Origin: Escherichia coli | Lineage (GTDB): Bacteria; Pseudomonadota; Gammaproteobacteria; Enterobacterales; Enterobacteriaceae | Length of the DNA stretch: 64,000 nt | Assembly (NCBI RefSeq): GCF_024700885.2 | Contig: NZ_CP117016.1 | Reading direction: 5' to 3' (one strand) | Part shown: positions 24,944 to 40,787 of the stretch, piece by piece | How positions within the stretch are numbered: position 1 is the stretch's first letter | Layout of the letters: every line of letters begins with the position of its first letter | Program-made: the position numbers and the translations under genes | The notes under the pieces: model-generated | The model's database searches: none | What the model saw: the letters and a program-made list of their open reading frames with translations, nothing else | Told to the model about the DNA's origin: nothing

Positions 24944-25153
24944 AACAACCCCCATAGGAATTATTAATGCATTCATTGAAATAATAGCAGCAAAAACCAC
25001 TGCTAAATAATCATTCTTTGTGTCATAAAACAAAAACACAACAATATTTAAAAATAACACAAAGAGATAAAAAAGCATATCTTTAATATTCATAACAGCC
25101 TCCTTTTTTCTAATTTGATAATTTACAAATATCTTAATATAACGAAAAGTCAA
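24878..25153 (-). CDS. Hypothetical small membrane protein (uncertain)
   Basis: 91-aa hydrophobic ORF; its 3' end overlaps the preceding plus-strand ORF convergently, so one of the two may be spurious. Confidence 0.3.
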   Translation of the reverse strand: MTFRYIKIFVNYQIRKKEAVMNIKDMLFYLFVLFLNIVVFLFYDTKNDYLAVVFAAIISMNALIIPMGVVLLFDSVLLRIKKRFNAGNSHF

Positions 25154-25568: not shown

Positions 25569-25876
25569 TGGTTGATTTTCATTGGTGTATCAGTCTGGTC
25601 TATGTTTGTTTTATATCAATTCAAAGATAACATAATCCCAGTTATTGAATTCGCCTATGAGCATATAAAGAGTTTCGTTACTTATTTATTAAGCAAGGGC
25701 TAACTCATCGAAGCTCCGCTTCTTTGAGTTCCCTTGTTTTTCGCCCTTCGGTTGAAAAAGAAAGTCAAAGTCTAACCTAACTCATTGACATGAATTGCAT
25801 TTCCACTATAAATATATAATGTGTTGCAAAGGAATTGCTTACTTTAAAGCGAATAAAAATATAAAAAGGAGTTTAT

Positions 25877-26260
25877 ATGGGTAAAATAATAACATTGTCG
25901 TATACAAATAATTTTAAGCCTATTAGCGATAATAAATCTCAATCATTGCGAATACACTGTGTAAGTGTACGATTAAATAAAGAAGAGTTAGAGCTTCTCA
26001 ATGCAAGCCGTGGTGATAAACGCAAAGGTGAATGGCTTCGCATGGCATCACTTCAAAAGCTTCCTCCGACCATTCCTACAATCAATTTAGAAGTTTGGCA
26101 ATCATTGTCTGATATATCTCAAAAGCTAAACCGTCTAATAATCCACCTTGATACTAAAAGCAGTAATAGTGAACTGACGAAAACAGAGATCTTCGCTGTT
26201 AAAAAGCAGATTAAAGAGCTTCGCTCATGTCTTACAGGTTCTGATCCGTCCGTAAGGTAG
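25877..26260 (+). CDS. MobC-like mobilisation (relaxosome accessory) protein
   Basis: 127-aa ORF with the MobC-type core HCVSVRLNKEELELLNA...GEWLRM, immediately upstream of a relaxase gene. Confidence 0.65.
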   Translation: MGKIITLSYTNNFKPISDNKSQSLRIHCVSVRLNKEELELLNASRGDKRKGEWLRMASLQKLPPTIPTINLEVWQSLSDISQKLNRLIIHLDTKSSNSELTKTEIFAVKKQIKELRSCLTGSDPSVR

Positions 26261-26268
26261 TTATTCGC

Positions 26269-27450
26269 ATGAAAGGAATGCAGAAGATCAAAAGGGGTAA
26301 GAGCTTCTCAGGTGTGGTTCTCTATGTGTTAAAGCCAGGCTCACACCATAGAACCGTTCCAGAAGTAATTGGTGGCAACATGACAGGTGATTGCTCACAA
26401 GAGTTAATCGACGAATTTAACCTTACGAAAGAGCTTCGCTCAGATGTGGCAAAACCTGTTTGGCACAATTCACTTCGATTACCCCAGGGAGAATCTCTTA
26501 CCAACGAACAATGGAAACGAATTGCTGACGATTACATGAAGCGAATGGGGTTCGGTGATACACACCTCCGTTGCTATGTTCTTCATGATGATCAGGCTGG
26601 TCAGCACATACACATTATTGCAAGTCGCATAGATCTCAATGGCGGGAAGCTCTACTTGGGTAGGAACGAAAACCTCATCAGCACCCGCATAATCAGTGAA
26701 CTCGAATTCGCTCATGGTCTGACAGTGACCAAGACAGCCTCTTCAATTGCACCAAAGCAACCGAAGCGGAAGAGAATCTCTCGCAACGAACAGATGCTAT
26801 CAGAACGAACTGGTGTTCCCTGCCCCAAGAAGTCCCTTCAACAGATCATAGATAAAAGTTTGGCAGATACACCTGACCTTTTAACTTTTATCAAGAGGCT
26901 GGAAGAAGCAGAAGTAGGCTGGACGGCGAATGTCGCAAGCACAGGTAAAATGAACGGGTTCTCTTTCGAATACACAGGAATAGCTTTCAAAGCTTCCCAG
27001 TTAGCCAAGAGCTATTCATGGGCAAATCTTCAAAAGCAGCTTAACTACAACCCGGATCACTTAGAAGCTCTGCGAAAGGATATACAGACCAAGGAAGTTC
27101 CTGCTCCTGTTCCTGTTCCTGTTCCTGTTCCTGTTCCTGTTCCTGTTCCTGTTCCTGCAGAACCGATAGCAAGAACGGCCGCCCAGATCGAAAGCATAAG
27201 TGAAAAAATTGCCGAACTGGAACTACGACTCAAAGAAGACAGAAGAAACGAAATCGTAGAAAAGATTCTTCAAAAGAATGCAGCCAAACAGCAAAAGCAT
27301 CTCAGGCTCACCGGCTGGATTCCCTTTTTACAACGGCTCATAGAGCTTCTCAGAAAATATGGAAGGAGCATCCTCCACAAGGTTCCTACAAACTTCTTAG
27401 AAGTCTATTCAACCCATCATCTGAAACCTACAAGAAAAATTCGTTTATAG
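26269..27450 (+). CDS. Mobilisation relaxase (MobA/VirD2-like nuclease domain) with internal (PV)n linker
   Basis: 393-aa ORF with N-terminal Tyr region (GVVLYVLKPG) and HDDQAGQHIHII three-histidine motif typical of relaxases. Confidence 0.75.
   Translation: MKGMQKIKRGKSFSGVVLYVLKPGSHHRTVPEVIGGNMTGDCSQELIDEFNLTKELRSDVAKPVWHNSLRLPQGESLTNEQWKRIADDYMKRMGFGDTHLRCYVLHDDQAGQHIHIIASRIDLNGGKLYLGRNENLISTRIISELEFAHGLTVTKTASSIAPKQPKRKRISRNEQMLSERTGVPCPKKSLQQIIDKSLADTPDLLTFIKRLEEAEVGWTANVASTGKMNGFSFEYTGIAFKASQLAKSYSWANLQKQLNYNPDHLEALRKDIQTKEVPAPVPVPVPVPVPVPVPVPAEPIARTAAQIESISEKIAELELRLKEDRRNEIVEKILQKNAAKQQKHLRLTGWIPFLQRLIELLRKYGRSILHKVPTNFLEVYSTHHLKPTRKIRL
27100..27153 (+). repeat. In-frame hexanucleotide tandem repeat (CCTGTT)n, nine units with seven perfect, encoding a Pro-Val/Pro-Ala linker
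   Basis: CCTGCT-(CCTGTT)x7-CCTGCA read directly inside the relaxase ORF. Confidence 0.9.
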
Positions 27451-27702
27451 ACAGCTAGTTATAAACACCTTTCGTAACATAACTTAATTACCTAGTGATA
27501 AATTTGTGTTTAGTCAAGAAAATATTGATCGTTATTACAGATCGATATCAATATTATGATAGCCTAAACCTATCGTAACTTAGACATCGATCGGTACAAG
27601 TGATTTTACTAAAGATAATTATTCATCGAGAATCCCTGAAAAGAGCCTGATGATTTTTAAGCAATAGCAGTATCAGGAACCGATTGTAAAAATGGAGTTA
27701 AT

Positions 27703-27981
27703 ATGAATAACGAAACCATTAAGTGTCCGTTCTGCTTCAAAGAGAGCCAGTTTGGTGTCCGTGTTTGTACCGGCTGTCATTCAACCATCAAATATGGCGA
27801 AGTTTCACCTTGGTTATCTTTACTAATAGGATTTATTTTATTAGCCATTGCTTACATCATACTTTATATAAGTCAAAGTTTTTTAGTAGCTCTCGTTATT
27901 CTTTTAACATTAATGATTTCTACAAGATTGTATATTCGTAAAAAATTTGCACACAGAGCAGTTTTCACTCACCAACATTAA
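27703..27981 (+). CDS. Hypothetical zinc-ribbon membrane protein
   Basis: 92-aa ORF with CPFC...CTGC at the N-terminus followed by two hydrophobic helices. Confidence 0.45.
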   Translation: MNNETIKCPFCFKESQFGVRVCTGCHSTIKYGEVSPWLSLLIGFILLAIAYIILYISQSFLVALVILLTLMISTRLYIRKKFAHRAVFTHQH

Positions 27982-28894: not shown

Positions 28895-29308
28895 TTATTT
28901 TTTGTTTTTGGGAAAAATTTGATCTTCTCTAATACATTTACCATATGCAACCATTTGAAGATCTCTAACCATAAGTAGAAGCCTGTTATTTTCACTAACT
29001 AACCTCGAATTTTCTGTTTCTAATTTACTGATTTTATTCGAAGCATAGGCAAGACTTTGAGGACTTTTAATATGCTTAACAGTTTCACCTTTAGTTCTCT
29101 TTTTCTGCTGATATGCATAAGCTATTACTGTATGTCTTGAAAGAGCCTGTCTCGTTGGTTTTTTACCGAAATGATCCTCTACGGAATCACAAAGACTGAC
29201 CCAAGTTAAATCGCCTTCCCAGCCATTTATTTTATCGAGAACGAATTCAATATCTTCCTTGTTAAACTTTTTACTCATTATGTTCTCCTCTAAGATAATA
29301 ACTAACAA
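28895..29308 (-). CDS. Small coiled-coil protein co-operonic with the recombinase trio (real start possibly MSKKFNKED at 29278)
   Basis: 137-aa ORF overlapping the stop of the upstream recombinase; C-terminal heptad-like KISKLETENSRLVSENNRLLLMVRDLQ. Confidence 0.5.
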   Translation of the reverse strand: MLVIILEENIMSKKFNKEDIEFVLDKINGWEGDLTWVSLCDSVEDHFGKKPTRQALSRHTVIAYAYQQKKRTKGETVKHIKSPQSLAYASNKISKLETENSRLVSENNRLLLMVRDLQMVAYGKCIREDQIFPKNKK

Positions 29309-30917
29309 TATGATTTATAATTTTACTAACTTCTTGGATTTCCTTTTCAACATAATTCGCTTTCTGTGAATTATATTGGCTTCTGTATAAATTATTCTTT
29401 TCTTCAAGCGTTTGTAAATGGTCTTTAATTTTGCAAATAATATCATCCTTACTCCCTCCACCTAAATCAGAAATCATTTCATCAGCAAATAATACTCTTC
29501 GTTCGTTTTGTCGCAACTCCTCCCAAGTTCGGTTATCATACACATTATTTTGTTCAACATTTTTCCTCCCTGACCAAAAAGCTATTTCTATATCAGAGAG
29601 CATAGCTCTTTGAGCAAGAGTGTTTAAAAGATGTCTTGGCTGATGACTACTAAAAATCTCTTTCATACCATTGGGTTGTAATGTTTTATGTCGTTGAAAA
29701 AAATTTAAGGTAGTTTCTTTTTCTGACCTTTTTTTAAAATCAGCAATAAACATCTTTTTATTTGCGGGTAAGACACAGAATAAATCAATTCCTTTCTTTA
29801 AATGTAATTGATCTTTATTTAGGATTAACAATCTATTACTAAGGTTTATAGATTTTGAAAATTCATCCCAAGATTTTGTTTTATCGCTATAATTAAAAAC
29901 TTCATTCCAAAATTCTTTTGCACTAAGAATCCCACTCTCTACCCTCATTAATATATTTTTAGTTTTAACATTGAAGCAGTCCATACAGTTTAGATTTAAA
30001 AGCTTATACAACTTTGTATGAAAATATCGTCCATTCTCATCAGTCTCTAAACTCTTATAAAACTCCAATTCTCCTTTTTCTCGTAGGGTAGCTATGCACC
30101 TTGCCGTTTGTGATAATACCCTTAATCTTTTAATGGCTAATTTTGCTATTGAATGCATATTCCTTGGAATCCACTTTATACTTTCACCATAGCCTTTTGC
30201 ACTATGATAACGAATGCCATAGGAGCCTTTCCCCTCTATGTCGTTCCCTTCAACTTCACAATCCACCTCAAGACTCAGGACTTCTGATATTCGTGTTGGA
30301 GCACAAAGAAGCAGTGCGATGATAGATGTTGTAAATATATCTCTTTGGCTTTTATCATTAGAACTAAAAACCCTACCAACAAGATCTATGACTTCCTCTT
30401 CTGGTAACTTATTTTTAATTTCTTTTTGCCCTATAAGATCTCTTACAGCTTTATTTCTAATTATTCTAAGCCTGGAGTTAAACTTACTTAATTTTGGATT
30501 TATTATGTTATTTATAGCTAACACTTCTAAAATATTCTTTAATGCCTTTTCAATAGCCCCCGCACGACTATTAGAATATTTCTTTTCTACTTGGAATAAA
30601 ATGTTGTTGATAACCTCAGAATTAATATTAACAATATGTGGTTCTACATTCAAAGTGAAGAATGAACTTTCCATAATTTTTATGACCGCCAAATAAAGTA
30701 ATGATTTACTGAGATTAGGGAAACACTCTCTATATATAATAACCTTTGATAATTGTTGAAAATGCGCTCCCATGTCTTTATCTTTTTTTATATGATTGTT
30801 ATTTTTAAATGAAACCCCTCTACCCCATGACAAATCATCCCAATTTATAATATTTTCTTTTTTTGCCTGTATCCTTACTTCATTAGCTAAAACATCATAA
30901 TTATTATAATGACTCAT
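29271..30917 (-). CDS. Tyrosine recombinase family protein (third of three tandem paralogues)
   Basis: 548-aa ORF; candidate catalytic residues in order: R in CAPTRISEVLSL, HQPRHLL (HxxR), W in FWSGRK, Y in NNVYDNR. Confidence 0.6.
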   Translation of the reverse strand: MSHYNNYDVLANEVRIQAKKENIINWDDLSWGRGVSFKNNNHIKKDKDMGAHFQQLSKVIIYRECFPNLSKSLLYLAVIKIMESSFFTLNVEPHIVNINSEVINNILFQVEKKYSNSRAGAIEKALKNILEVLAINNIINPKLSKFNSRLRIIRNKAVRDLIGQKEIKNKLPEEEVIDLVGRVFSSNDKSQRDIFTTSIIALLLCAPTRISEVLSLEVDCEVEGNDIEGKGSYGIRYHSAKGYGESIKWIPRNMHSIAKLAIKRLRVLSQTARCIATLREKGELEFYKSLETDENGRYFHTKLYKLLNLNCMDCFNVKTKNILMRVESGILSAKEFWNEVFNYSDKTKSWDEFSKSINLSNRLLILNKDQLHLKKGIDLFCVLPANKKMFIADFKKRSEKETTLNFFQRHKTLQPNGMKEIFSSHQPRHLLNTLAQRAMLSDIEIAFWSGRKNVEQNNVYDNRTWEELRQNERRVLFADEMISDLGGGSKDDIICKIKDHLQTLEEKNNLYRSQYNSQKANYVEKEIQEVSKIINHIVSYYLRGEHNE

Positions 30918-32274
30918 TATTCATGCCCTCCTTGTTGAGCAATTCGATTATTTTATTTATTTTACATTCTAACATTGTGAATAAGTCCGTTAGGATTTCA
31001 AAGTCTGCTTGCTTCGTATAATCTGCTATTAATACTCCAGTAAGCTTTTTTATGATTATCAAATCGTCAACCAATCTAAGGGTAATGTCGTCACTGTTTT
31101 TTAAAAATGAGGAAATATAAGGGCTTACTAACTCATTTATTGCCTGATCTATTCTGAATGAAAACTCTTCATTGTTTTTTGCATACGACAATACTGATTT
31201 CAAATTGCTATGATCTAAAGCTTTTGCTATCGTACCTAATCCATAACCTTTAAGTGCAAGCCTTGTGGCTAATGTAACCCTAAGTTGCCGAGAGTTAATC
31301 TTTTTATTTTTATCTTTACTTACCCTTTGGCAAATGGCCTGAACCCTACCGGTTATCCTCTTAGAACTCATATGCAAATTGAAGAAGTTATTTTCATATA
31401 ATTTATCAAGTTTGTAAGTCGAGTTAAAAAAACAAGGATCAATAAAGAGGGGTAAATTGTTTAATTCATCTTCACTTAATATATCGCCTACCTCACCCTG
31501 CACAAAAACCTTAACTACTGATTTAAGCTCTGATAGTGAATTGAACAAATTATCCCCTATACGCAATTCGGAAAAATCAGTTCTGAAACTATCTCCTTGT
31601 TTTAATCTGGGTATGTTTAAAAAATTACCATTTTCTTTGATATAAAGATCCTTCCTTTTTAATTGAGCGATCTGCATTGGTCTTCGCCCCGAATATATCA
31701 TCAGCATGACTAAAAGGTAGTCATTCATAGTCATATTTCCATCATTGTATTCCTTTGTCATGCCCCCAATTAGGTTCTTCAGTTCGTATTCAGATAATGG
31801 TCTTAAAGACTCTTTTCGCTCAATATATGCAGTTGTCTTGTTGGGTTTAGTTACTTTCCATTTTAAAATCAAATCCAGCATTTCTTGATCTATGAATTCA
31901 TTATTTAACTCATAATGTTTTATTATAAAATACTTTAAACTTTCAACATGTGTATAGCTTATTTTATAATATGCATTGTAAAATCTATTTAGTAATCCAT
32001 AGTCAAATTTGTCCAACTTCCCTTGATTAAAAACAACGAGTTTTTTTATAGAAAAGAAAAACTTTCTCGCATAAGCTGAACTAAAATTCACAGCAGTATA
32101 GGCAAGGGTCTCTTTTATAGATGCTAATAAGATAGCATTAATGTTTCTTTCAAAATATGAGAAATTTAATTTAACATCTTTGCTGAGAAACCAAACACTA
32201 TCATGTAAACTAAAATTATTTCTGCTGTCTTTTGCCTTTAATACCAAGTAATTTTCTAACATTAATGCTTTCAT
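30904..32274 (-). CDS. Tyrosine recombinase-like protein with degenerate catalytic motifs (second of three)
   Basis: 456-aa ORF; SGRRPMQIAQL (box I Arg), SRQLRVTLATR, LDHSNLKSVLSYAKN; overlaps both neighbours. Confidence 0.5.
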   Translation of the reverse strand: MKALMLENYLVLKAKDSRNNFSLHDSVWFLSKDVKLNFSYFERNINAILLASIKETLAYTAVNFSSAYARKFFFSIKKLVVFNQGKLDKFDYGLLNRFYNAYYKISYTHVESLKYFIIKHYELNNEFIDQEMLDLILKWKVTKPNKTTAYIERKESLRPLSEYELKNLIGGMTKEYNDGNMTMNDYLLVMLMIYSGRRPMQIAQLKRKDLYIKENGNFLNIPRLKQGDSFRTDFSELRIGDNLFNSLSELKSVVKVFVQGEVGDILSEDELNNLPLFIDPCFFNSTYKLDKLYENNFFNLHMSSKRITGRVQAICQRVSKDKNKKINSRQLRVTLATRLALKGYGLGTIAKALDHSNLKSVLSYAKNNEEFSFRIDQAINELVSPYISSFLKNSDDITLRLVDDLIIIKKLTGVLIADYTKQADFEILTDLFTMLECKINKIIELLNKEGMNNESL

Positions 32275-33508
32275 CTATTTCTCCTTCAATTTTATTTATG
32301 ATTTCTTGATTCACTAAATCTGCCTCTTCAAAAGCTTTTAAAGTTTCTTCACTAATATAACGATTGTTATAAATCAAAGCCGTTTTGGAGTTCATTTTCC
32401 ACCCCATTCTTACGCATCTGATTCTATCTAATTGGGTCAATCTATATTGATCAGTGACTCCTATGTATTTTAAACTGTAAATATAGTTCCATGTGTGCCG
32501 TAGACAATGCCCTGTGAAATTTTGAAAAGATACTCCATTGAATTCAATTCTACTTATTTGCTTAATTACTTTATGATATGCACTTATTGACAGAGGAAAT
32601 CCTTCCGTAGGACCAGATTTTTGAGTAATAAATAAGTAATTATGATTTAAGCTTTTCGAATAGAAAGACCTATCATTGTCTATATATGAAGAGATTTGCA
32701 TAGACAATTTTTTGCTAATATTTAATTCTCGTTCAAATGTTTTAACAAGTGGTTGAAAAACTCTTGGGTCTGCTGGATCATTTATTCTTTTACAAACTTT
32801 CAGATATCTTTTTTCCTTGTTAAAATCAGTAATTTTCAAGTTCAATAGCTCACCCCCTCGCATTCCAGTTTCCTGAAGAATGAGGATTATGAGTTGATTT
32901 CTTTTACGGCAACTGATATCAACAAATGGATTGTATTGGCTTTCAGGTTCTATACATTGCAATAGAATGTCTAAGCTTTCTTTTTCTAATGATTTAAAAT
33001 CATTATTCAAATAGAATTGAGAGTTTAATTTTGGTTTATGTTTACGAAAAAGCAAACTAACACTTTTTGATATAATGTTTGTCTCATATATTGTAGTGCT
33101 AAAATATGATTCATAAATCCAAGAAATGTAGGAACTAATTACTGTCAATCTATAATGAAGATTTTCTTGATTGATCTTTTTATACTCTTTTATATCTATA
33201 ACTTTTTGTTTTTTATTTTTAACTCTAAGTTGTTCTGACAATGAATAGATTTCAGTAAAGCTAAGGAAGGTCTTAGATCTAATTCTTTCGATAAGATTTA
33301 TATTTGATTCTATTAGATAATTTTCAAAAGCAATCAAAGTGTAAGCATTTCTCAATACTGTATTAAATGACTTATTCTTTTGCTTATATAGCAAACTAAG
33401 ATATATATTTTGATAATACAATGGCAAACCGTTTTTTGAATCCAAAATCATACAAAATCTGCTTCCATCACTCGCCATTAACTTCTTTACTGAATATCTC
33501 CTATTCAT
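32216..33508 (-). CDS. Tyrosine recombinase family protein (first of three; start set at MNRRYSVKKL after a GGGGTGA RBS, ORF extends to 33547)
   Basis: GMRGGELLNL (box I Arg), HCLRHTW (HxxR), GWKMNS, ALIYNNRY (Tyr) in canonical order. Confidence 0.65.
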   Translation of the reverse strand: MNRRYSVKKLMASDGSRFCMILDSKNGLPLYYQNIYLSLLYKQKNKSFNTVLRNAYTLIAFENYLIESNINLIERIRSKTFLSFTEIYSLSEQLRVKNKKQKVIDIKEYKKINQENLHYRLTVISSYISWIYESYFSTTIYETNIISKSVSLLFRKHKPKLNSQFYLNNDFKSLEKESLDILLQCIEPESQYNPFVDISCRKRNQLIILILQETGMRGGELLNLKITDFNKEKRYLKVCKRINDPADPRVFQPLVKTFERELNISKKLSMQISSYIDNDRSFYSKSLNHNYLFITQKSGPTEGFPLSISAYHKVIKQISRIEFNGVSFQNFTGHCLRHTWNYIYSLKYIGVTDQYRLTQLDRIRCVRMGWKMNSKTALIYNNRYISEETLKAFEEADLVNQEIINKIEGEIDESINVRKLLGIKGKRQQK

Positions 33509-33626
33509 TATCACCCCATAATTTATTTTTTTATTTATAGGTAACATAATTTTTTAGCAAGTTACAAATTTATTTGCTATTATTTTCAATGACCTTATTA
33601 CTCGCGACTCTAATAAAGAATCGGCC

Positions 33627-33680: not shown

Positions 33681-33757
33681 GCGGTAGTAGTTCAGTTGGT
33701 CAGAATATTCCCCTGTCACGGGAATGGTCGTGGGTTCGAGTCCCATCTATCGCGCCA
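33681..33757 (+). tRNA. tRNA-Asp (anticodon GUC), foreign island-borne copy
   Basis: Manual cloverleaf: acceptor GCGGTAG/CTATCGC, D stem GTTC/GAAT, anticodon stem TTCCC/GGGAA with loop CUGUCAC, T loop TTCGAGT, 3' GCCA; differs from my recollection of the host tRNA-Asp. Confidence 0.8.
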
Positions 33758-33761
33758 GAAA

Positions 33762-33836
33762 GGGCAATTAACTCATTGGTAGAGTGTATCTCTTACAAAG
33801 ATATGGCGGTTGGTTCGATTCCAACATTGCCCACCA
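33762..33836 (+). tRNA. tRNA-Val (anticodon UAC), foreign island-borne copy
   Basis: Manual cloverleaf: acceptor GGGCAAT/ATTGCCC, D stem ACTC/GAGT, anticodon stem TATCT/AGATA with loop CUUACAA, T stem GTTGG/CCAAC, 3' ACCA. Confidence 0.8.
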
Positions 33837-34712: not shown

Positions 34713-36560
34713 TCAACCTTGATAATCTTCAGCCTCGATACCACAATAAGTTATCATGTTTGTTATTAACGGTATATCATTACAATTCTGCTTGAAAGAC
34801 CTGCCATAACTATTGTTTCTTATTTTACAACGAGTCATTAATACTTCTTCAATGGCTCTTGAAAATGCCACAAAGACTGTTTTTTGATTTTCTATTTGCT
34901 CTTCTTCTTTACCAAAATAGGCACCAGGTTCAAGCCCCACAACGATGACCTTCCTGAACTCTAACCCTTTACTTTTATGGATGGTCATAAGAGGTATTGT
35001 TTTATTGCCAAGTAATAAATCAATGGCTTCTGATGTGTTTTCTTTTACATCTAACTTATCGAGGTGGCGAGAAAGTAATTCTATGCTATATTCTAAAACA
35101 TTCCCACTCATATACTGCGGAAAGTAAGACTTTATTTTATCGACACCAAATATACTTAATAATGAATATAAATAATCGACAATTTCTCCTTTAATTACCC
35201 GATGAGATTTAATAAACTGGCTAAGTTCTTTTTCTAACCGTGTAACATCACCTCTTTTACTTACTCCTCTTATATTACATAGAAGCTCCATTGTAGTGGC
35301 CCAGCTTTCTATGGATTTTCTATTACAGACAAACATTAGCATTTGTAAAAGTAACTGTACTACAGCTTCATTTAAAAGATCCTGATACTCGTTCTCAAGG
35401 CGACATTGTATTTTCAAATATTGCAATGCTGAAATGATATCGTCTGTATATTGTTTAGCCGGGTTTCTTAGCAGTATACATATATCTCTTTCATTTACTC
35501 CTTCAGCAATCCATTGCTGGATACATAATGCTATATATGCCCCTTCAATACTACTTTCGTCAAATTGTAGTAACTTAGCTGAACCTTCATTTTCAATCAA
35601 CATCATATCAGGCTTTATATCAGCATGATTCATGAAAGCTTCCATCATGCGTTGATAATTTATGAGGTTTTTTAATGACCTTCTATTGCTAACTAATTCA
35701 TTAGATTGTTCGATTCCAAAATCTTTTTTAAACACATCAAAAGCATTGTGCATTGCACCTGCCCAACCCATTATTCTTTGTTTTGTATCACCGACTGCTG
35801 TTATTTTTATTTTTTTACCCAAGAAAATGCTCTTAAAAATCTCATATTGCCTATATGTTGTGTCCTGAAACTCATCGATAAAAGCATAGTCATATGTTGA
35901 ATTTATAGCATTAGATAAATATTGATTCCTACTAATAATATAATTAGCAAGAAAATTAATCATCTTGAATGAAATCCTTGATTTTGGTTTTAATAAGTGT
36001 AACCACACAAACCGTCTTATCCTGCCATCAACAGAATGTTCTAATGCTTTATTATAAGGAGTTACTATATAATTCTCTTCAAAATTATAAGGTTGTAATT
36101 TATTTAATTCTTCAGATGTTAAACCTTCAAAGCCTACGGCCTCTCTTTTAATTTCTTCAACTAAATCATTATTATTTGGAAAGATTATTTCATAGTCATT
36201 TGATGGACGATAAGATTCCGGAATAGTGCTTTTAAAGCGATCAACAATACTTTTACAGAATGCATCAAATGTTGTTGATTCAAATTTGTGTCTATATTTT
36301 GTATCAAGCCGTGAGTTTACTCTATCTTGAAGATTTTTGGCCGCATCTTTTTTAAAGGATAATGCAATTATTTTTTTATTGCTGCATTTTCCTGTCTCAA
36401 TCAAGAAACAAGCTTTCTGAGCCAATAATTCTGTTTTACCTGCACCGGGACCAGCAAGAACGAGATTATGCCCTGTACTATTTCGAATTACCCTCATAGC
36501 CTCGTCTTCTACTTCTTGGATATCCTTTAAAACCCAATCGGCATCTTTAATAGTCGGCAT
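34713..36560 (-). CDS. gajB: UvrD/PcrA-like superfamily 1 helicase, Gabija GajB-like
   Basis: 615-aa ORF with Walker A (LAGPGAGKTELL), DEFQDTT motif and C-terminal HKSKGLEF motif; start codon shares one nucleotide with the upstream ATPase stop. Confidence 0.65.
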   Translation of the reverse strand: MPTIKDADWVLKDIQEVEDEAMRVIRNSTGHNLVLAGPGAGKTELLAQKACFLIETGKCSNKKIIALSFKKDAAKNLQDRVNSRLDTKYRHKFESTTFDAFCKSIVDRFKSTIPESYRPSNDYEIIFPNNNDLVEEIKREAVGFEGLTSEELNKLQPYNFEENYIVTPYNKALEHSVDGRIRRFVWLHLLKPKSRISFKMINFLANYIISRNQYLSNAINSTYDYAFIDEFQDTTYRQYEIFKSIFLGKKIKITAVGDTKQRIMGWAGAMHNAFDVFKKDFGIEQSNELVSNRRSLKNLINYQRMMEAFMNHADIKPDMMLIENEGSAKLLQFDESSIEGAYIALCIQQWIAEGVNERDICILLRNPAKQYTDDIISALQYLKIQCRLENEYQDLLNEAVVQLLLQMLMFVCNRKSIESWATTMELLCNIRGVSKRGDVTRLEKELSQFIKSHRVIKGEIVDYLYSLLSIFGVDKIKSYFPQYMSGNVLEYSIELLSRHLDKLDVKENTSEAIDLLLGNKTIPLMTIHKSKGLEFRKVIVVGLEPGAYFGKEEEQIENQKTVFVAFSRAIEEVLMTRCKIRNNSYGRSFKQNCNDIPLITNMITYCGIEAEDYQG

Positions 36561-38548
36561 TAAAGTAATCCTCTTACTGTTTCGATAATTTCATTAAGAA
36601 CTTCAGGACTATCATCTCTTAACTTATCGTCTTCCATTTTTGATAGAACATAATTGTGCGATAATGGTTTACCTCTTCCTAAAAATAGGTAACGATACCA
36701 AAAATATTTTTCATAATCATCGAACTCACTAATATCAATATCTTTCTCTTCTTTTTTCAAAACTGCAGCAATTGCCGATTTAACTTTATTATCATATTCA
36801 TGATCGTCATCTTTTGGCAATCTTGGCCCACCATTTTTGGGAACAAATGTCTTATAATCCTCAAAGAATTTATTAAGCATTAGCCAATCTAAATCGTAGG
36901 GGTAAGAAAAATAAACATTATAATCTTTTAGACAATTAATCCATGCCGATTCATTATCTTGATCCTCATCCCATGTATGCATTTTTTCAAGCTCTTCATC
37001 ACTTAAAGTTCCTGAAGTAATACTTAACAATTCATTTTTATCTGCACCTATAGATATTAATTGTTTGACTGCATATTTAATTCTTCCCCAACCACCACCT
37101 CCTCCTCTCTTGAAATCATAGTCGAGAAGAGTCACATGTGGAATTGAAAGCTCATTGAGTAACTTCCAAAAATGATTAACATATCGCCCTCCTAATGGAG
37201 CAAATGTTATCAATGAAGTGTCAAGCTCTATACCATTTACTTGAGCTATTTTAGGTATTACTATTTCTTCGCTATCACCTTCACCAAGTATTACAACTTT
37301 TGCAAAATAAATTTCTGGATATGCCTTCACTGCTTCTTTTACATAAGTGAAAGTATCAACATTGTCTCCATCGTCTTCATCTTCGCTTGGTAATAATATT
37401 GGTTTGACAACAGTATTTTTATTATCATGTAGACGAAAATACCTTATATTTTCTGGTTCTACTCTATTGAGTAATGAAGGTGCGTGTGTTGTTAAAACAA
37501 CCTGTGCTCGATCATTCTCAGATATATCTTCACATAGTTTAACTATTCTTCCTAAATATTGGGGTGAAAGATGATTTTCTGGTTCTTCGATTAATATTAT
37601 CGTTAAATTTGGAGGATCTAATGCTTCTACTGATATTGATAATTCATTTTCTCCTGAATTAATGATCTCATCTTCAATATCAAATGCAGATTTGACTAAC
37701 GAAAGATAAAACAATGACTTCATACCATCACTCAATCTTTCAGTTGGTAATGGCTGAGTCACCGGAGTAGGCATAAATACAGTATCTATATGCTTTAATA
37801 CATCTTCTATTCCATTCATTACTGGCTGAATTTTAAGCTGTTCAAAATACCCTCCGCTAAAAAGAGTTTTCCAATTTCTGCCCAATGAAGATGTTATTGT
37901 CTGAACCCCAATTTCTTCTTGGAACTGGTTTCCGATTGATTCTGCAACCTCATCAACCGTTGAACTCATCTGTTCAGACCATTCAACTGCATTTATCAAA
38001 CGGTGCATGATGGTTCCGGCTGTTTGCTTCAGTTGTTGAGCAGGATCGCGATAAGCAGGGACATAATGAACATGGATTTTTGATCTTTCATATGCTGTAA
38101 TATTTTTTTCATATTCTCCTATTTCCCATACTAAATCACTATCTATATCCCCTTCTGCAAGATTAGTTTTTGTCCATTTAGCTTTTAATTTTGCTATACA
38201 GTATGGGATCTGGTCTGCTTCATTTGAGACCAAATGCTTAAAGAAATCAGCGACTGAATCGTCCTCACCATCTTGCAGATCTGCAAATTCAAATTTTACA
38301 CGAACTGATAATTCTCTTTCATCTTGAGTATCGATTTCATCTCCAGGAGGAACATAAAAATCATCAACTTGAACAATTCTATCGGAGCTTTTGACACCAA
38401 ACATCCTTGTCAATGCGAGGAGAACAGCCGTCTTACCTGTTCCATTCCCTCCAATTAAGCTGGTGAATGAATTTATATTTATAGTTTGCCCTACATTATC
38501 AAAGCTCTTAAAACCTTTGATCTCCATTTGTGTAATTTTCATTATCAC
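36560..38548 (-). CDS. gajA: OLD-family ATPase-TOPRIM nuclease, Gabija GajA-like
   Basis: 662-aa ORF with ABC-type Walker A (LIGGNGTGKTAVLL), Walker B and H-loop region (IILIEEPENHLSP) and a C-terminal TOPRIM-like VVILGEGDSEE. Confidence 0.65.
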   Translation of the reverse strand: MIMKITQMEIKGFKSFDNVGQTININSFTSLIGGNGTGKTAVLLALTRMFGVKSSDRIVQVDDFYVPPGDEIDTQDERELSVRVKFEFADLQDGEDDSVADFFKHLVSNEADQIPYCIAKLKAKWTKTNLAEGDIDSDLVWEIGEYEKNITAYERSKIHVHYVPAYRDPAQQLKQTAGTIMHRLINAVEWSEQMSSTVDEVAESIGNQFQEEIGVQTITSSLGRNWKTLFSGGYFEQLKIQPVMNGIEDVLKHIDTVFMPTPVTQPLPTERLSDGMKSLFYLSLVKSAFDIEDEIINSGENELSISVEALDPPNLTIILIEEPENHLSPQYLGRIVKLCEDISENDRAQVVLTTHAPSLLNRVEPENIRYFRLHDNKNTVVKPILLPSEDEDDGDNVDTFTYVKEAVKAYPEIYFAKVVILGEGDSEEIVIPKIAQVNGIELDTSLITFAPLGGRYVNHFWKLLNELSIPHVTLLDYDFKRGGGGGWGRIKYAVKQLISIGADKNELLSITSGTLSDEELEKMHTWDEDQDNESAWINCLKDYNVYFSYPYDLDWLMLNKFFEDYKTFVPKNGGPRLPKDDDHEYDNKVKSAIAAVLKKEEKDIDISEFDDYEKYFWYRYLFLGRGKPLSHNYVLSKMEDDKLRDDSPEVLNEIIETVRGLL

Positions 38549-39195
38549 CTCAATTGCTGTTTTAAAAAATTATAATCACTAATTATTTCTGCGTTTGTAA
38601 TGATTTCTTGTGAGCACAGCTTAAAACATTCTAAAAATATATTTTTATTATCGTTATGTTCCCAATGTTTTTTCAAAGCTTCTTCAATTGAAATCCAAAT
38701 AACTTGAAAATCGTTATTAGATATTTGGCTTGTTAAAACTGTTTCTTCCACACAAAGTATATGCCCTAAGATGACATCATCGTATATGTCAGTATCTGAA
38801 TCTCTAACTCCTAACCTTTTTATTTTCCTTTTTTGGATGATTTTATTTTTAACAATAAAAGGATGTTCTTCTATAAAATCGGTCAATGATGTAAAAGCCA
38901 AGCCACGAACCTGAGCACCATGCATTGAACTATTTACTTTATGGATATCTCTCCAAACTCGCAGATCACCTAATACATAGAGAACCCGCTGATTTCTCGC
39001 TTTCGTATCTTCTGCTTGGTATTGGATATAAGGTGGCCCTCCCCCATTTTGTCTATATCGGGCAAGGGTTTTGATGCTTATGCCAAGAAAGACAGAAGCA
39101 AGCTCACTATTTACAGTGGCAGAATCAGGCATTTGACCAAATAGTTTCCATACCTCTGAATACTCCCGCAAAACTTCCACCACACTCATCTTCAC
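38545..39195 (-). CDS. Uncharacterised protein with an N-terminal HTH-like motif, translationally coupled between the integrase and the ATPase (possible true start at ATG 39189)
   Basis: 216-aa ORF; ELASVFLGISIKTLARYRQNGGGPP resembles excisionase/AlpA-type HTH; its start overlaps the integrase stop and its stop overlaps the ATPase start (ATGA). Confidence 0.5.
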   Translation of the reverse strand: MKMSVVEVLREYSEVWKLFGQMPDSATVNSELASVFLGISIKTLARYRQNGGGPPYIQYQAEDTKARNQRVLYVLGDLRVWRDIHKVNSSMHGAQVRGLAFTSLTDFIEEHPFIVKNKIIQKRKIKRLGVRDSDTDIYDDVILGHILCVEETVLTSQISNNDFQVIWISIEEALKKHWEHNDNKNIFLECFKLCSQEIITNAEIISDYNFLKQQLR

Positions 39196-40655
39196 TCCCT
39201 CGTTTCAGGTAATGGAGGATACTTAGCCGAAGCAAGTAACACATTGTATAATTTAGGAGCAGTCATAAGCATATGCAACTCAATCCTTTGTAATGCTTCA
39301 AAAATCCGTTCTTGATCAGGTTCTGCATACCTTTCTGTTGGATCTGTTGTATTTCTGTGATTGAGCAGTCTCTTAACGACGGCATATGAAACAAGTTCTT
39401 CAGCAACCCTACCAAATGTCCTTCGTAGATCATGCATACCAAGCTTCAGGATTCCCGCCTCTTGGCAGATATATTCCCTTAGACTTTTACTATCGGAATA
39501 GTGACCAACTTTACTTCGAGAAGAACGGGCCGGGAAAACCCACTTCTGTTTGTCCTTCTGGGTTACCGTATCGTTTACTATGTCTCTTCTATCTTCCAAA
39601 ATTCTTTTGACAGCATCACAAATCGGAAGCTCGTGATCGTTTCGATTCTTAGTGTCGTAAAAACGGATAGTTCTGTTACTCAGGTCAACATAGCTTGTCG
39701 TTTTAGCTTCTTCCTTTGTAAGAGACTCTCGCCAACACAGAGAAGCTGTTTCTTCCTTACGAGCACCTAAGAGAACGGTAAGTAGCAGATAATCGCACCC
39801 AAGCCGGTTGAAGCTTCTCTTGTTGAACAATGCAGTCAAGAACCGACCAAGTGTATCCTTTGGTGATAAGGGGTTTCTGACACCTTTTGCCCGATAACTA
39901 TCCTCAAGCTCAGAACGTGTCCTAAACTTTTTCTGTACCTTTAAGATACTGAAAGGGTTGTAAGATAGAGAAGGTTGTCGTTGCTGGGTCTGAGCATTCC
40001 CAGCTTCAATCTCTATTGCGTGTTTTACAGCAACATTCGCCCACCTAAAGGTCTGTTCCGCTGCTGTTCTGGCTCTTGAAGCAATCTCATCAAACTTCCT
40101 AAGAATTTCATTACCAGTAAGATCTTTAACTCGCAAACCAGCCCACTCAGAAAGCCTGTTTTCTGCTTTATCTAATACAGCCAAGGTGTTGGGTTTAGCT
40201 GGTTTCGCTCTACCCAGCAGATGCTGGCGGTATTGTGCAAACACTTCACTGATAGTGAGTTCAGAAGCATCGGACTCCCGTTTTATTTTGTTAGGGTTCC
40301 TTTTGGTCAACTTCATGGTTTGAACTAAATTGCGAGCAACCTCGCGGGCTTGATCGATGTTAGCGAAATCAGAGACATTGCCAATTGTAGACCTGATAAC
40401 CTCAGATGGGGATTTTCCCCCTGTCTTAGGGCGATTGCCAGGAGAAGAGACTCGTCGCTGAACGATATAGGTCTTTTTCGTTGCACTGATTTTGACACCA
40501 AAACCAACGGGTGAATCCCGGTGATTATCAGTGATAAGATACGGTTTTCGCTCTGGATTGGGTAAGTAGACTACTCTGCCTTGCGGATCAAGGCTCGGTT
40601 TCACGTCGATAGATAACTTATTGATTATAATCGACTGATTGAGTGTCATTTTCAT
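39192..40655 (-). CDS. Tyrosine integrase, P4-like family with N-terminal arm-binding domain (ORF extends to 40763; start set at MKMTLNQ)
   Basis: Box I LLGARKEETASL, HDLRRTFG (HxLR) and C-terminal NHRNTTDPTERY; lies at the island border next to the target gene. Confidence 0.8.
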   Translation of the reverse strand: MKMTLNQSIIINKLSIDVKPSLDPQGRVVYLPNPERKPYLITDNHRDSPVGFGVKISATKKTYIVQRRVSSPGNRPKTGGKSPSEVIRSTIGNVSDFANIDQAREVARNLVQTMKLTKRNPNKIKRESDASELTISEVFAQYRQHLLGRAKPAKPNTLAVLDKAENRLSEWAGLRVKDLTGNEILRKFDEIASRARTAAEQTFRWANVAVKHAIEIEAGNAQTQQRQPSLSYNPFSILKVQKKFRTRSELEDSYRAKGVRNPLSPKDTLGRFLTALFNKRSFNRLGCDYLLLTVLLGARKEETASLCWRESLTKEEAKTTSYVDLSNRTIRFYDTKNRNDHELPICDAVKRILEDRRDIVNDTVTQKDKQKWVFPARSSRSKVGHYSDSKSLREYICQEAGILKLGMHDLRRTFGRVAEELVSYAVVKRLLNHRNTTDPTERYAEPDQERIFEALQRIELHMLMTAPKLYNVLLASAKYPPLPETRE

Positions 40656-40660
40656 CGATG

Positions 40661-40716
40661 TATACCAGTGGTTCAAGTGTGTATACCAGATAGTAGCTAG
40701 AATACTTCTGGTATAC
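40661..40716. promoter_or_regulatory. Three copies of TATACCAG, including a 10-bp inverted repeat GTATACCAGA...TCTGGTATAC, between the integrase start and mutS
   Basis: Read directly; candidate integrase operator or arm sites, overlapping a possible -10 (TAGAAT) for the rewired mutS. Confidence 0.5.
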
Positions 40717-40787
40717 AAATTTATGGGTTTATGTGAGTTTAAAGGGGTATCACTTGGGGCCACATAAGTACTCAGAAGACTTTAAAA

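Follow-up and report, generated by a model that had tools for sequence, protein, structure and literature searches.

A hypervariable in-frame hexanucleotide repeat in the linker of a chromosomal MobA/VirD2-like relaxase from an Escherichia coli island

By its gene order, part of the locus described here resembles the GInts, whose defining operon codes for two RHRY tyrosine recombinases together with a large recombinase-like and a small protein (PMC5385486, PMC10214605). GInts carry defence systems in E. coli (PMC10121019), and they are apparently without a mobilisation system (PMC10214605, PMC5385486). Among mobilisation proteins, the closest described relatives are MobA of R1162/RSF1010 and other relaxases of Pfam family PF03432, with which the relaxase studied here shares an N-terminal relaxase domain, a tyrosine (Y19) and a histidine triad (H106, H113 and H115). 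The likeness extends to the surroundings of the gene, as it is preceded by a small, putatively accessory ORF and by an intergenic region containing a hairpin. However, the protein is only about 42-43% identical to relaxases of IncQ-like small plasmids over aa 6-256. In contrast to MobA-type relaxases, it has a short helical C-terminus with no primase or other large domain, it carries a linker encoded by a variable-number tandem repeat (VNTR), and in E. coli it is exclusively chromosomal. No description of this locus, or of a repeat or VNTR in a relaxase, was found in the literature search.

The relaxase gene and its island

The window, that is, the whole stretch of 64,000 nucleotides of E. coli DNA that was analysed, contains a low-GC (30-40%) island of about 18 kb between ygbA (beside hyc/hyp/fhlA) and mutS, and the relaxase gene lies in this island (Table 1). 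The product matches PF03432 (MobA/VirD2-like relaxase) from aa 19 to aa 151 over the full profile (positions 1-132; 95.2 bits against a cut-off of 24.6), and RefSeq annotates the ORF as a relaxase/mobilization nuclease domain-containing protein. All of 79 aligned sequences have Y19 and H115, and at least 90% of them have H106 and H113; by analogy with the family, Y19 would be the catalytic tyrosine, and H106, H113 and H115 the metal-binding triad. All matches of the ORF to NCBIfam relaxase models are below the cut-offs, and that to TraI/MobA(P) (NF041893) reaches 66.8 bits where 250 are needed, which places the protein outside this class. No relaxase was returned when solved structures in the PDB were searched by sequence. 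Searching the PDB with the whole two-part model by Foldseek gave the relaxase domain of MobA from R1162 (2ns6) as the top match with a probability of 0.97, but with an E value of 0.015 and a TM-score of 0.39 (target). Judged by its sequence, the ORF is a PF03432 relaxase outside every curated subfamily. The gene is 100% identical in the strains CFSAN061761 and MLI114. Of 5426 complete E. coli genomes, 126-131 (about 2.4%) carry a member of its family, all 133 places matched in E. coli being chromosomal, and the plasmid collection offers nothing closer than 56% identity.

The 127-aa ORF directly upstream of the relaxase gene was found in the same place in every locus for which neighbours were listed. 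No Pfam or NCBIfam family was found for its product, which may be a relaxosome accessory protein. Upstream of this ORF sits a candidate oriT, at which TTCGCCCT seems to resemble the nick region of R1162 (CGCCCT). At 25025-25074, in a region of 30% GC upstream of the mobilisation genes, an A-rich sequence of 21 bp is repeated in tandem (2.4 copies, 68% matches).

The recombinase module downstream of the relaxase gene encodes proteins of 443 aa and 456 aa, both with PF00589, then one of 548 aa without a family and one of 137 aa. By gene order, this arrangement fits the GInt definition. Relaxase and recombinase module are also found together at a different site in Klebsiella, at tRNA-Leu in E. 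coli, and beside a distant relaxase homologue. GInts and SEs have been published as putatively non-mobilisable, and a relaxase-linked GInt-like lineage may merit attention. In CFSAN061761 the gene for the 548-aa recombinase-like protein is interrupted by IS1 (L001, 19388-20085). This IS1 is absent from the window at about 29590; therefore, the window represents another strain with the same island. Beyond the module, a tRNA-Asp(GTC) and tRNA-Val(TAC) pair may mark the junction of two elements or may consist of island-borne tRNAs. The Gabija genes are followed by a 216-aa ORF without a family and then by a tyrosine recombinase gene (39192-40763) abutting mutS.

Table 1. Coordinates of the repeat array, the relaxase gene and neighbouring features (window numbering unless a locus is named)
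Feature	Position	Strand	Remarks
Candidate oriT	25691-25755	+	Imperfect hairpin of about 22 bp (AAGCAAGGGCTAACTCATCGAAGC / GCTTCTTTGAGTTCCCTTGTTT), then TTCGCCCT; inverted repeats I2 and I5
127-aa ORF	25877-26260	+	Directly upstream of the relaxase gene
Relaxase ORF, MobA/VirD2-like	26269-27450	+	393 aa; Pfam PF03432
Predicted folded N-terminal part, aa 1-271	26269-27081	+	AlphaFold pLDDT mostly 78-95; conserved in the family at large
Relaxase core, about aa 10-150, plus second subdomain, aa 172-271	within 26269-27081	+	
Array CCTGCT-(CCTGTT)8-CCTGCA	27100-27159	+	Codes PA(PV)8PA, relaxase aa 278-297
Single CCTGCT unit	27100-27105	+	5' edge of the array
Eight perfect CCTGTT units	27106-27153	+	Core; the part changing between islands (4, 5, 8, possibly 18)
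Single CCTGCA unit	27154-27159	+	3' edge of the array
Predicted C-terminal long helix, aa 301-363	27169-27357	+	AlphaFold pLDDT about 60-76
Four-gene recombinase module	28895-33547	-	A few kb downstream of the relaxase gene
tRNA-Asp(GTC) and tRNA-Val(TAC)	33681-33836		Inside the low-GC island, between integrase module and Gabija part
Gabija, gajA and gajB	34713-38548	-	PADLOC: GajB 658 bits, GajA 798 bits
Recombinase module at other loci	L015 12587-17200; L020 15129-19900; L143 13289-17863		

The hexamer array and its copy number

The array consists of ten hexamers. Position 27100 is codon position 1 of the relaxase ORF, so that the array is in frame, and the peptide across it reads KEV-PA-(PV)8-PA-EPIA. 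An earlier note on this DNA had placed an in-frame microsatellite in a relaxase gene, and both the reading frame and the PF03432 match agree with it. The note had counted nine hexamers, seven of them perfect, at 27100-27153; the start and the nine units hold, but eight CCTGTT units are perfect, and a tenth Pro-X unit, CCTGCA, extends the array to 27159. TRF calls the array at 27097-27157 (period 6, 10.2 copies, 96% matches) with a score of 115, the highest in the whole window, and no other perfect hexamer run of at least three copies exists within the 64 kb. A three-unit pattern with at most one mismatch has seven matches, all of them in the array, against 0.00 expected from 100 dinucleotide-preserving shuffles. 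The array thus shows the identical head-to-tail DNA units beyond chance that characterise a coding VNTR or microsatellite.

Codon use in the tract is uniform: Pro is CCT in 10 of 10 codons and Val is GTT in 8 of 8, compared with 4 of 14 and 7 of 16, respectively, in the rest of the relaxase gene. Under independent codon choice such uniformity has a probability of about 5e-9. The array has therefore grown by duplication of its units, and an origin by selection on the protein with no such duplication was rejected on the uniformity of the codons. The alleles from E. coli, Klebsiella and metagenomes are built from blocks of just two unit types, CCTGCT for Pro-Ala and CCTGTT for Pro-Val, and they end in a fixed terminal unit, CCTGCA or CCTGTA. 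One C-to-T variant unit may have expanded within an older Pro-Ala array, and the two edge units of the window's array are what would be expected from such an expansion.

The island of the window was compared with islands at the same chromosomal site, ygbA/mutS. Eight CCTGTT units are present in the window, in CFSAN061761 and in MLI114 (reference). Five are present in GCA_003980375.1, which is 99.74% identical over 15.1 kb outside the repeat, and in a 2-kb metagenome contig with 1 mismatch in 1.7 kb. Four are present in two ENA assemblies, the identity being 99.70% over 15.1 kb for L004 and 98.9% over 21 kb, including chromosomal flanks, for L003 (ENA). In the comparisons of roughly 15 kb of the same island, the repeat is the only indel besides one single-base gap. 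The earlier note had suggested that linker length may vary between isolates, and had named an identical repeat number in all homologous islands as the finding that would speak against this; instead, the same island carries 4, 5 or 8 units at one site with about 99.7% identity around them. A count of 18 units comes from the metagenome contig OLIQ01000713.1 (L014), with 1 mismatch in 13.3 kb downstream, and is uncertain, as this is a short-read metagenome contig in which the relaxase gene is cut by an IS. This contig was the sole match in an exact-pattern metagenome scan for the left flank, and it ends about 220 bp from the array. The end of an IS3-family element truncates its relaxase gene at the equivalent of window position 27006 or so, about 100 bp upstream of the repeat, so that the longest PV array seen stands in a truncated copy.

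Larger differences were found among sister alleles in complete E. coli genomes, which carry (CCTGCT)n arrays coding for 5 to 35 Pro-X dipeptides. UTME-12, LD91-1, UTME-9 and W409 have 19, 14, 11 and 10 dipeptides, respectively, and differ from one another by 0-3 mismatches in 1425 bp, while UTME-14 and UTME-10 have 5 each (counts by match length). ECONIH4 and AH04 have 9 and 12 dipeptides with 0 mismatches in 1418 bp; 401656 (35 dipeptides) and MS15046 (19) show not one mismatch in 1316 bp and about 19 in 25 kb. The comparison across related islands, which had been proposed as a check, therefore finds sister alleles 3, 8 and 16 units apart with 0 mismatches in 1316-1425 bp of gene and flanking sequence. 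The changes always involve whole units, and the gene is in frame and intact at every length, as the earlier note had anticipated for hexamer slippage; whole-unit copy-number differences between otherwise near-identical sequences are what defines a coding VNTR. Meanwhile, clonal sets of genomes (AH02/AH04/CT01, E14/E15/E16/E32 and four CUVET19 genomes) each keep a single length, and the array thus shows no instability over very short times. From these alleles, the array appears to change far faster than point substitutions accumulate in the gene, yet it is steady among isolates of one clone.

The tract is shared beyond E. coli. The best 120 protein homologues span Escherichia, Klebsiella, Salmonella, Citrobacter, Enterobacter and others; in 113 of them at least three dipeptides (6-22 aa) stand at the shared position, and in the remaining seven one or two. 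A Salmonella homologue (L019, OX345050.1) that is 56% identical has (CCAGTG)10-CCAGCA at 2746-2811, at the same site as the array, and this codes (PV)10PA, the Pro-X peptide repeat being built from another hexamer. OX345050.1, a linear contig of 3.6 kb, bears a plasmid label, and the relaxase gene on it is unannotated. Since the hexamer is CCAGTG, the Pro-X repeat either persisted through a full turnover of its units or arose twice, and in both cases the comparison of sequences suggests that the protein benefits from a Pro-X spacer, a hint of some protein-level selection that speaks against full neutrality.

Linker, mechanism and alternative explanations

A search of 1.84 billion representative proteins gave 4182 matches to the relaxase. 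The best 150 of them range from 300 to 1000 aa in total length; they align almost only with aa 1 to about 265 of the query, and their C-termini are unrelated. In the AlphaFold model, which was built with a 79-sequence alignment, the protein is folded to about aa 270, and aa 271-304 stand out as the one long segment in which pLDDT falls below 50 and no secondary structure is modelled, low pLDDT being no more than a proxy for disorder. The Pro-X tract starts a few residues past the family-conserved part. The helix at the C-terminus has a W-x-PF...ELL..YG.SIL motif, which is conserved within the subfamily and recognisable in two distant homologues (P0126 and P0127) whose linkers are non-repetitive. 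Because of this homology boundary, the low-pLDDT stretch and the conserved helix motif, the tract is predicted to separate two modules, i.e. the relaxase part and the C-terminal helix. The view of the array as a linker following the relaxase domain is supported by both the alignment boundary and the modelled coil, and the position between modules, with no predicted structure, is that of an interdomain Pro-rich spacer. The tract is probably an extended, polyproline-II-like spacer, and the C-terminal helix may be a partner-binding or oligomerisation module.

We consider it likely, with a probability of roughly 0.8, that the array represents a hexanucleotide VNTR which is hypervariable, never leaves the frame and codes for a length-tolerant spacer. 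Loops of six bases are too large for efficient recognition by MutS in E. coli. The number of units would change by strand slippage in replication, and the 6-bp loops would escape MutS repair, leading to instability even in repair-proficient strains; for the longest arrays (about 200 bp), unequal recombination may add to slippage. Every change would add or remove Pro-X dipeptides and never break the frame, and the (Pro-Val/Pro-Ala)n spacer would tether the catalytic relaxase to the conserved C-terminal helix, which would likely serve in oligomerisation or in docking to the coupling protein. Since natural alleles span 1 to 35 dipeptides in intact genes, the length of the spacer appears to be weakly constrained. 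The length polymorphism is probably near-neutral rather than a switch, although alleles at either extreme of length might be defective. Phase variation at a contingency locus was rejected, since the unit length, 6 bp, is divisible by three and every allele keeps the frame and an intact ORF; contingency through promoter spacing was rejected because the region contains no promoter.

The repetitive DNA could instead be maintained because rapid changes in the length of the spacer are adaptive and not neutral, each change fitting the reach of the relaxase to the coupling proteins of a helper or evading something in recipients. The Pro-X repeat lies at the exact same position across the enterobacterial subfamily, the 56% identical homologue has built it from a different hexamer, and the range of alleles is very wide (1-35 dipeptides); moreover, the islands occur in several genera and insertion sites and therefore must meet different helpers. 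However, CCTGYT arrays of up to 24 units are found in unrelated proteins of unrelated bacteria among the matches listed, and the occurrence of the same arrays in many unrelated proteins suggests that mutational origin and tolerance are sufficient. In addition, the linkers of distant relatives are non-repetitive and of assorted lengths at this site, and in the few groups examined the repeat length is unlinked to lineage. Selection on spacer length is thus unlikely as the main explanation. Also doubtful, and if anything a little more so, is that the repeat is maintained as a device of evolvability, whereby fast and reversible changes in tether length would retune a helper-dependent island to the conjugative machinery of its host. 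If this were true, the arrays built from CCTGCT, CCTGTT and CCAGTG in diverged homologues would reflect selection for repetitiveness itself.

A function of the array as DNA is very improbable, whether as a cluster of binding sites, as a promoter or terminator acting on genes downstream, or as a hotspot of recombination. The only hint in this direction is the uniformity of the array at the DNA level. No promoter-like sites were found in a scan of 26800-27800, the only terminator-like sites near the array are about 200 bp off and on the other strand, and neither DNA strand folds better than its shuffles (z of -0.22 and +0.56; no hairpin); on the negative scans and the folding, a DNA-level function of the array was rejected. 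In addition, the array is in frame and codes for Pro-X in all homologues, and the different hexamer in the Salmonella homologue, with the same peptide, argues that the peptide was kept and not the DNA word. Collapse or expansion of the repeat in sequencing or assembly can hardly explain the variation, even though the 18-unit count stems from a metagenome contig that was assembled from short reads and ends about 220 bp away and the protein database, mostly of short-read assemblies, has a maximum of 11 dipeptides against 35 in complete genomes, since arrays of 36-60 bp are well inside read length, the same counts were obtained from separate assemblies (8 from two complete genomes, 5 and 4 each from two sources), clonal complete genomes agree, and all differences are exact multiples of 6.

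If the array is a length-tolerant VNTR, its change at a rate above that of point substitutions could separate recent transmission chains of the Gabija-carrying islands. Meanwhile, the intact relaxase genes with 1 to 35 Pro-X dipeptides constitute a natural series of linker lengths, which predicts that the catalytic part and the C-terminal helix act as tethered independent modules. The difference between the database maximum and complete genomes also implies that short-read assemblies under-represent long alleles. Two proteins that are 98% identical to the window protein and differ from it mainly in repeat number (P0001 and P0003) each form a single-member cluster in the 90%-identity database, in which the window's own sequence is absent. 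Length variants of the repeat thus seem to be split, not grouped, by clustering at 90% identity, and alleles differing mainly in repeat number appear there as separate single-member clusters.

Comparison with known linkers and repeats

At the protein level, the tract resembles several known linkers in which Pro alternates strictly with another residue and which join parts that fold independently. The N-terminal (Ala-Pro)n extension of myosin essential light chain is an alternating Pro-X run, the (Glu-Pro)/(Lys-Pro) segment of TonB and the Ala/Pro linkers of the E2 subunits of 2-oxoacid dehydrogenases are Pro-X spacers of the same kind, and the proline-rich region of pneumococcal PspA shares the Pro-X character and gave a weak NCBIfam match. 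Alternating Pro-X segments in such proteins are extended and semi-rigid. The sole matches to the tract in a PDB sequence search were the myosin light chain and PKS and FAS linkers, with E values of 0.2-0.9, which are not significant. However, the linkers of myosin, PspA, TonB and E2 usually keep one length within a species, and their codons are mixed, whereas the relaxase tract is made of identical DNA units and has a 35-fold span of length between alleles.

At the DNA level, the unit is found well beyond this gene. A scan of species-representative genomes found three CCTGYT units followed by CCTGYA at no fewer than 120 loci, and among the matches listed (L022-L141), the CCTGYT arrays are 4-24 units long and lie in many unrelated genes from bacteria that are themselves unrelated; by inspection, these genes include those for secreted cytochrome-c-like (lipo)proteins, an FtsY-like protein and a sortase-like protein. 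No relaxase homologue is among the listed matches, and the scan is not informative on the taxonomic spread of the window relaxase. On the basis of these coding sequences, the Pro-Ala hexamer microsatellite appears to be a general type of bacterial linker.

The hexanucleotide VNTRs used in E. coli MLVA (e.g. the CVN loci) likewise have perfect 6-bp units and whole-unit polymorphism between strains, and, like the relaxase array, they keep their length within clones and vary from lineage to lineage. In contrast to them, the relaxase array belongs to an accessory island carried by about 2.4% of complete E. coli genomes and is no generic typing locus; given this prevalence, it is unlikely to be identical with a named MLVA locus. 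It also differs from contingency loci in that it cannot switch its gene off. The array of the relaxase gene is therefore real and strikingly polymorphic, but mechanistically an ordinary coding microsatellite.
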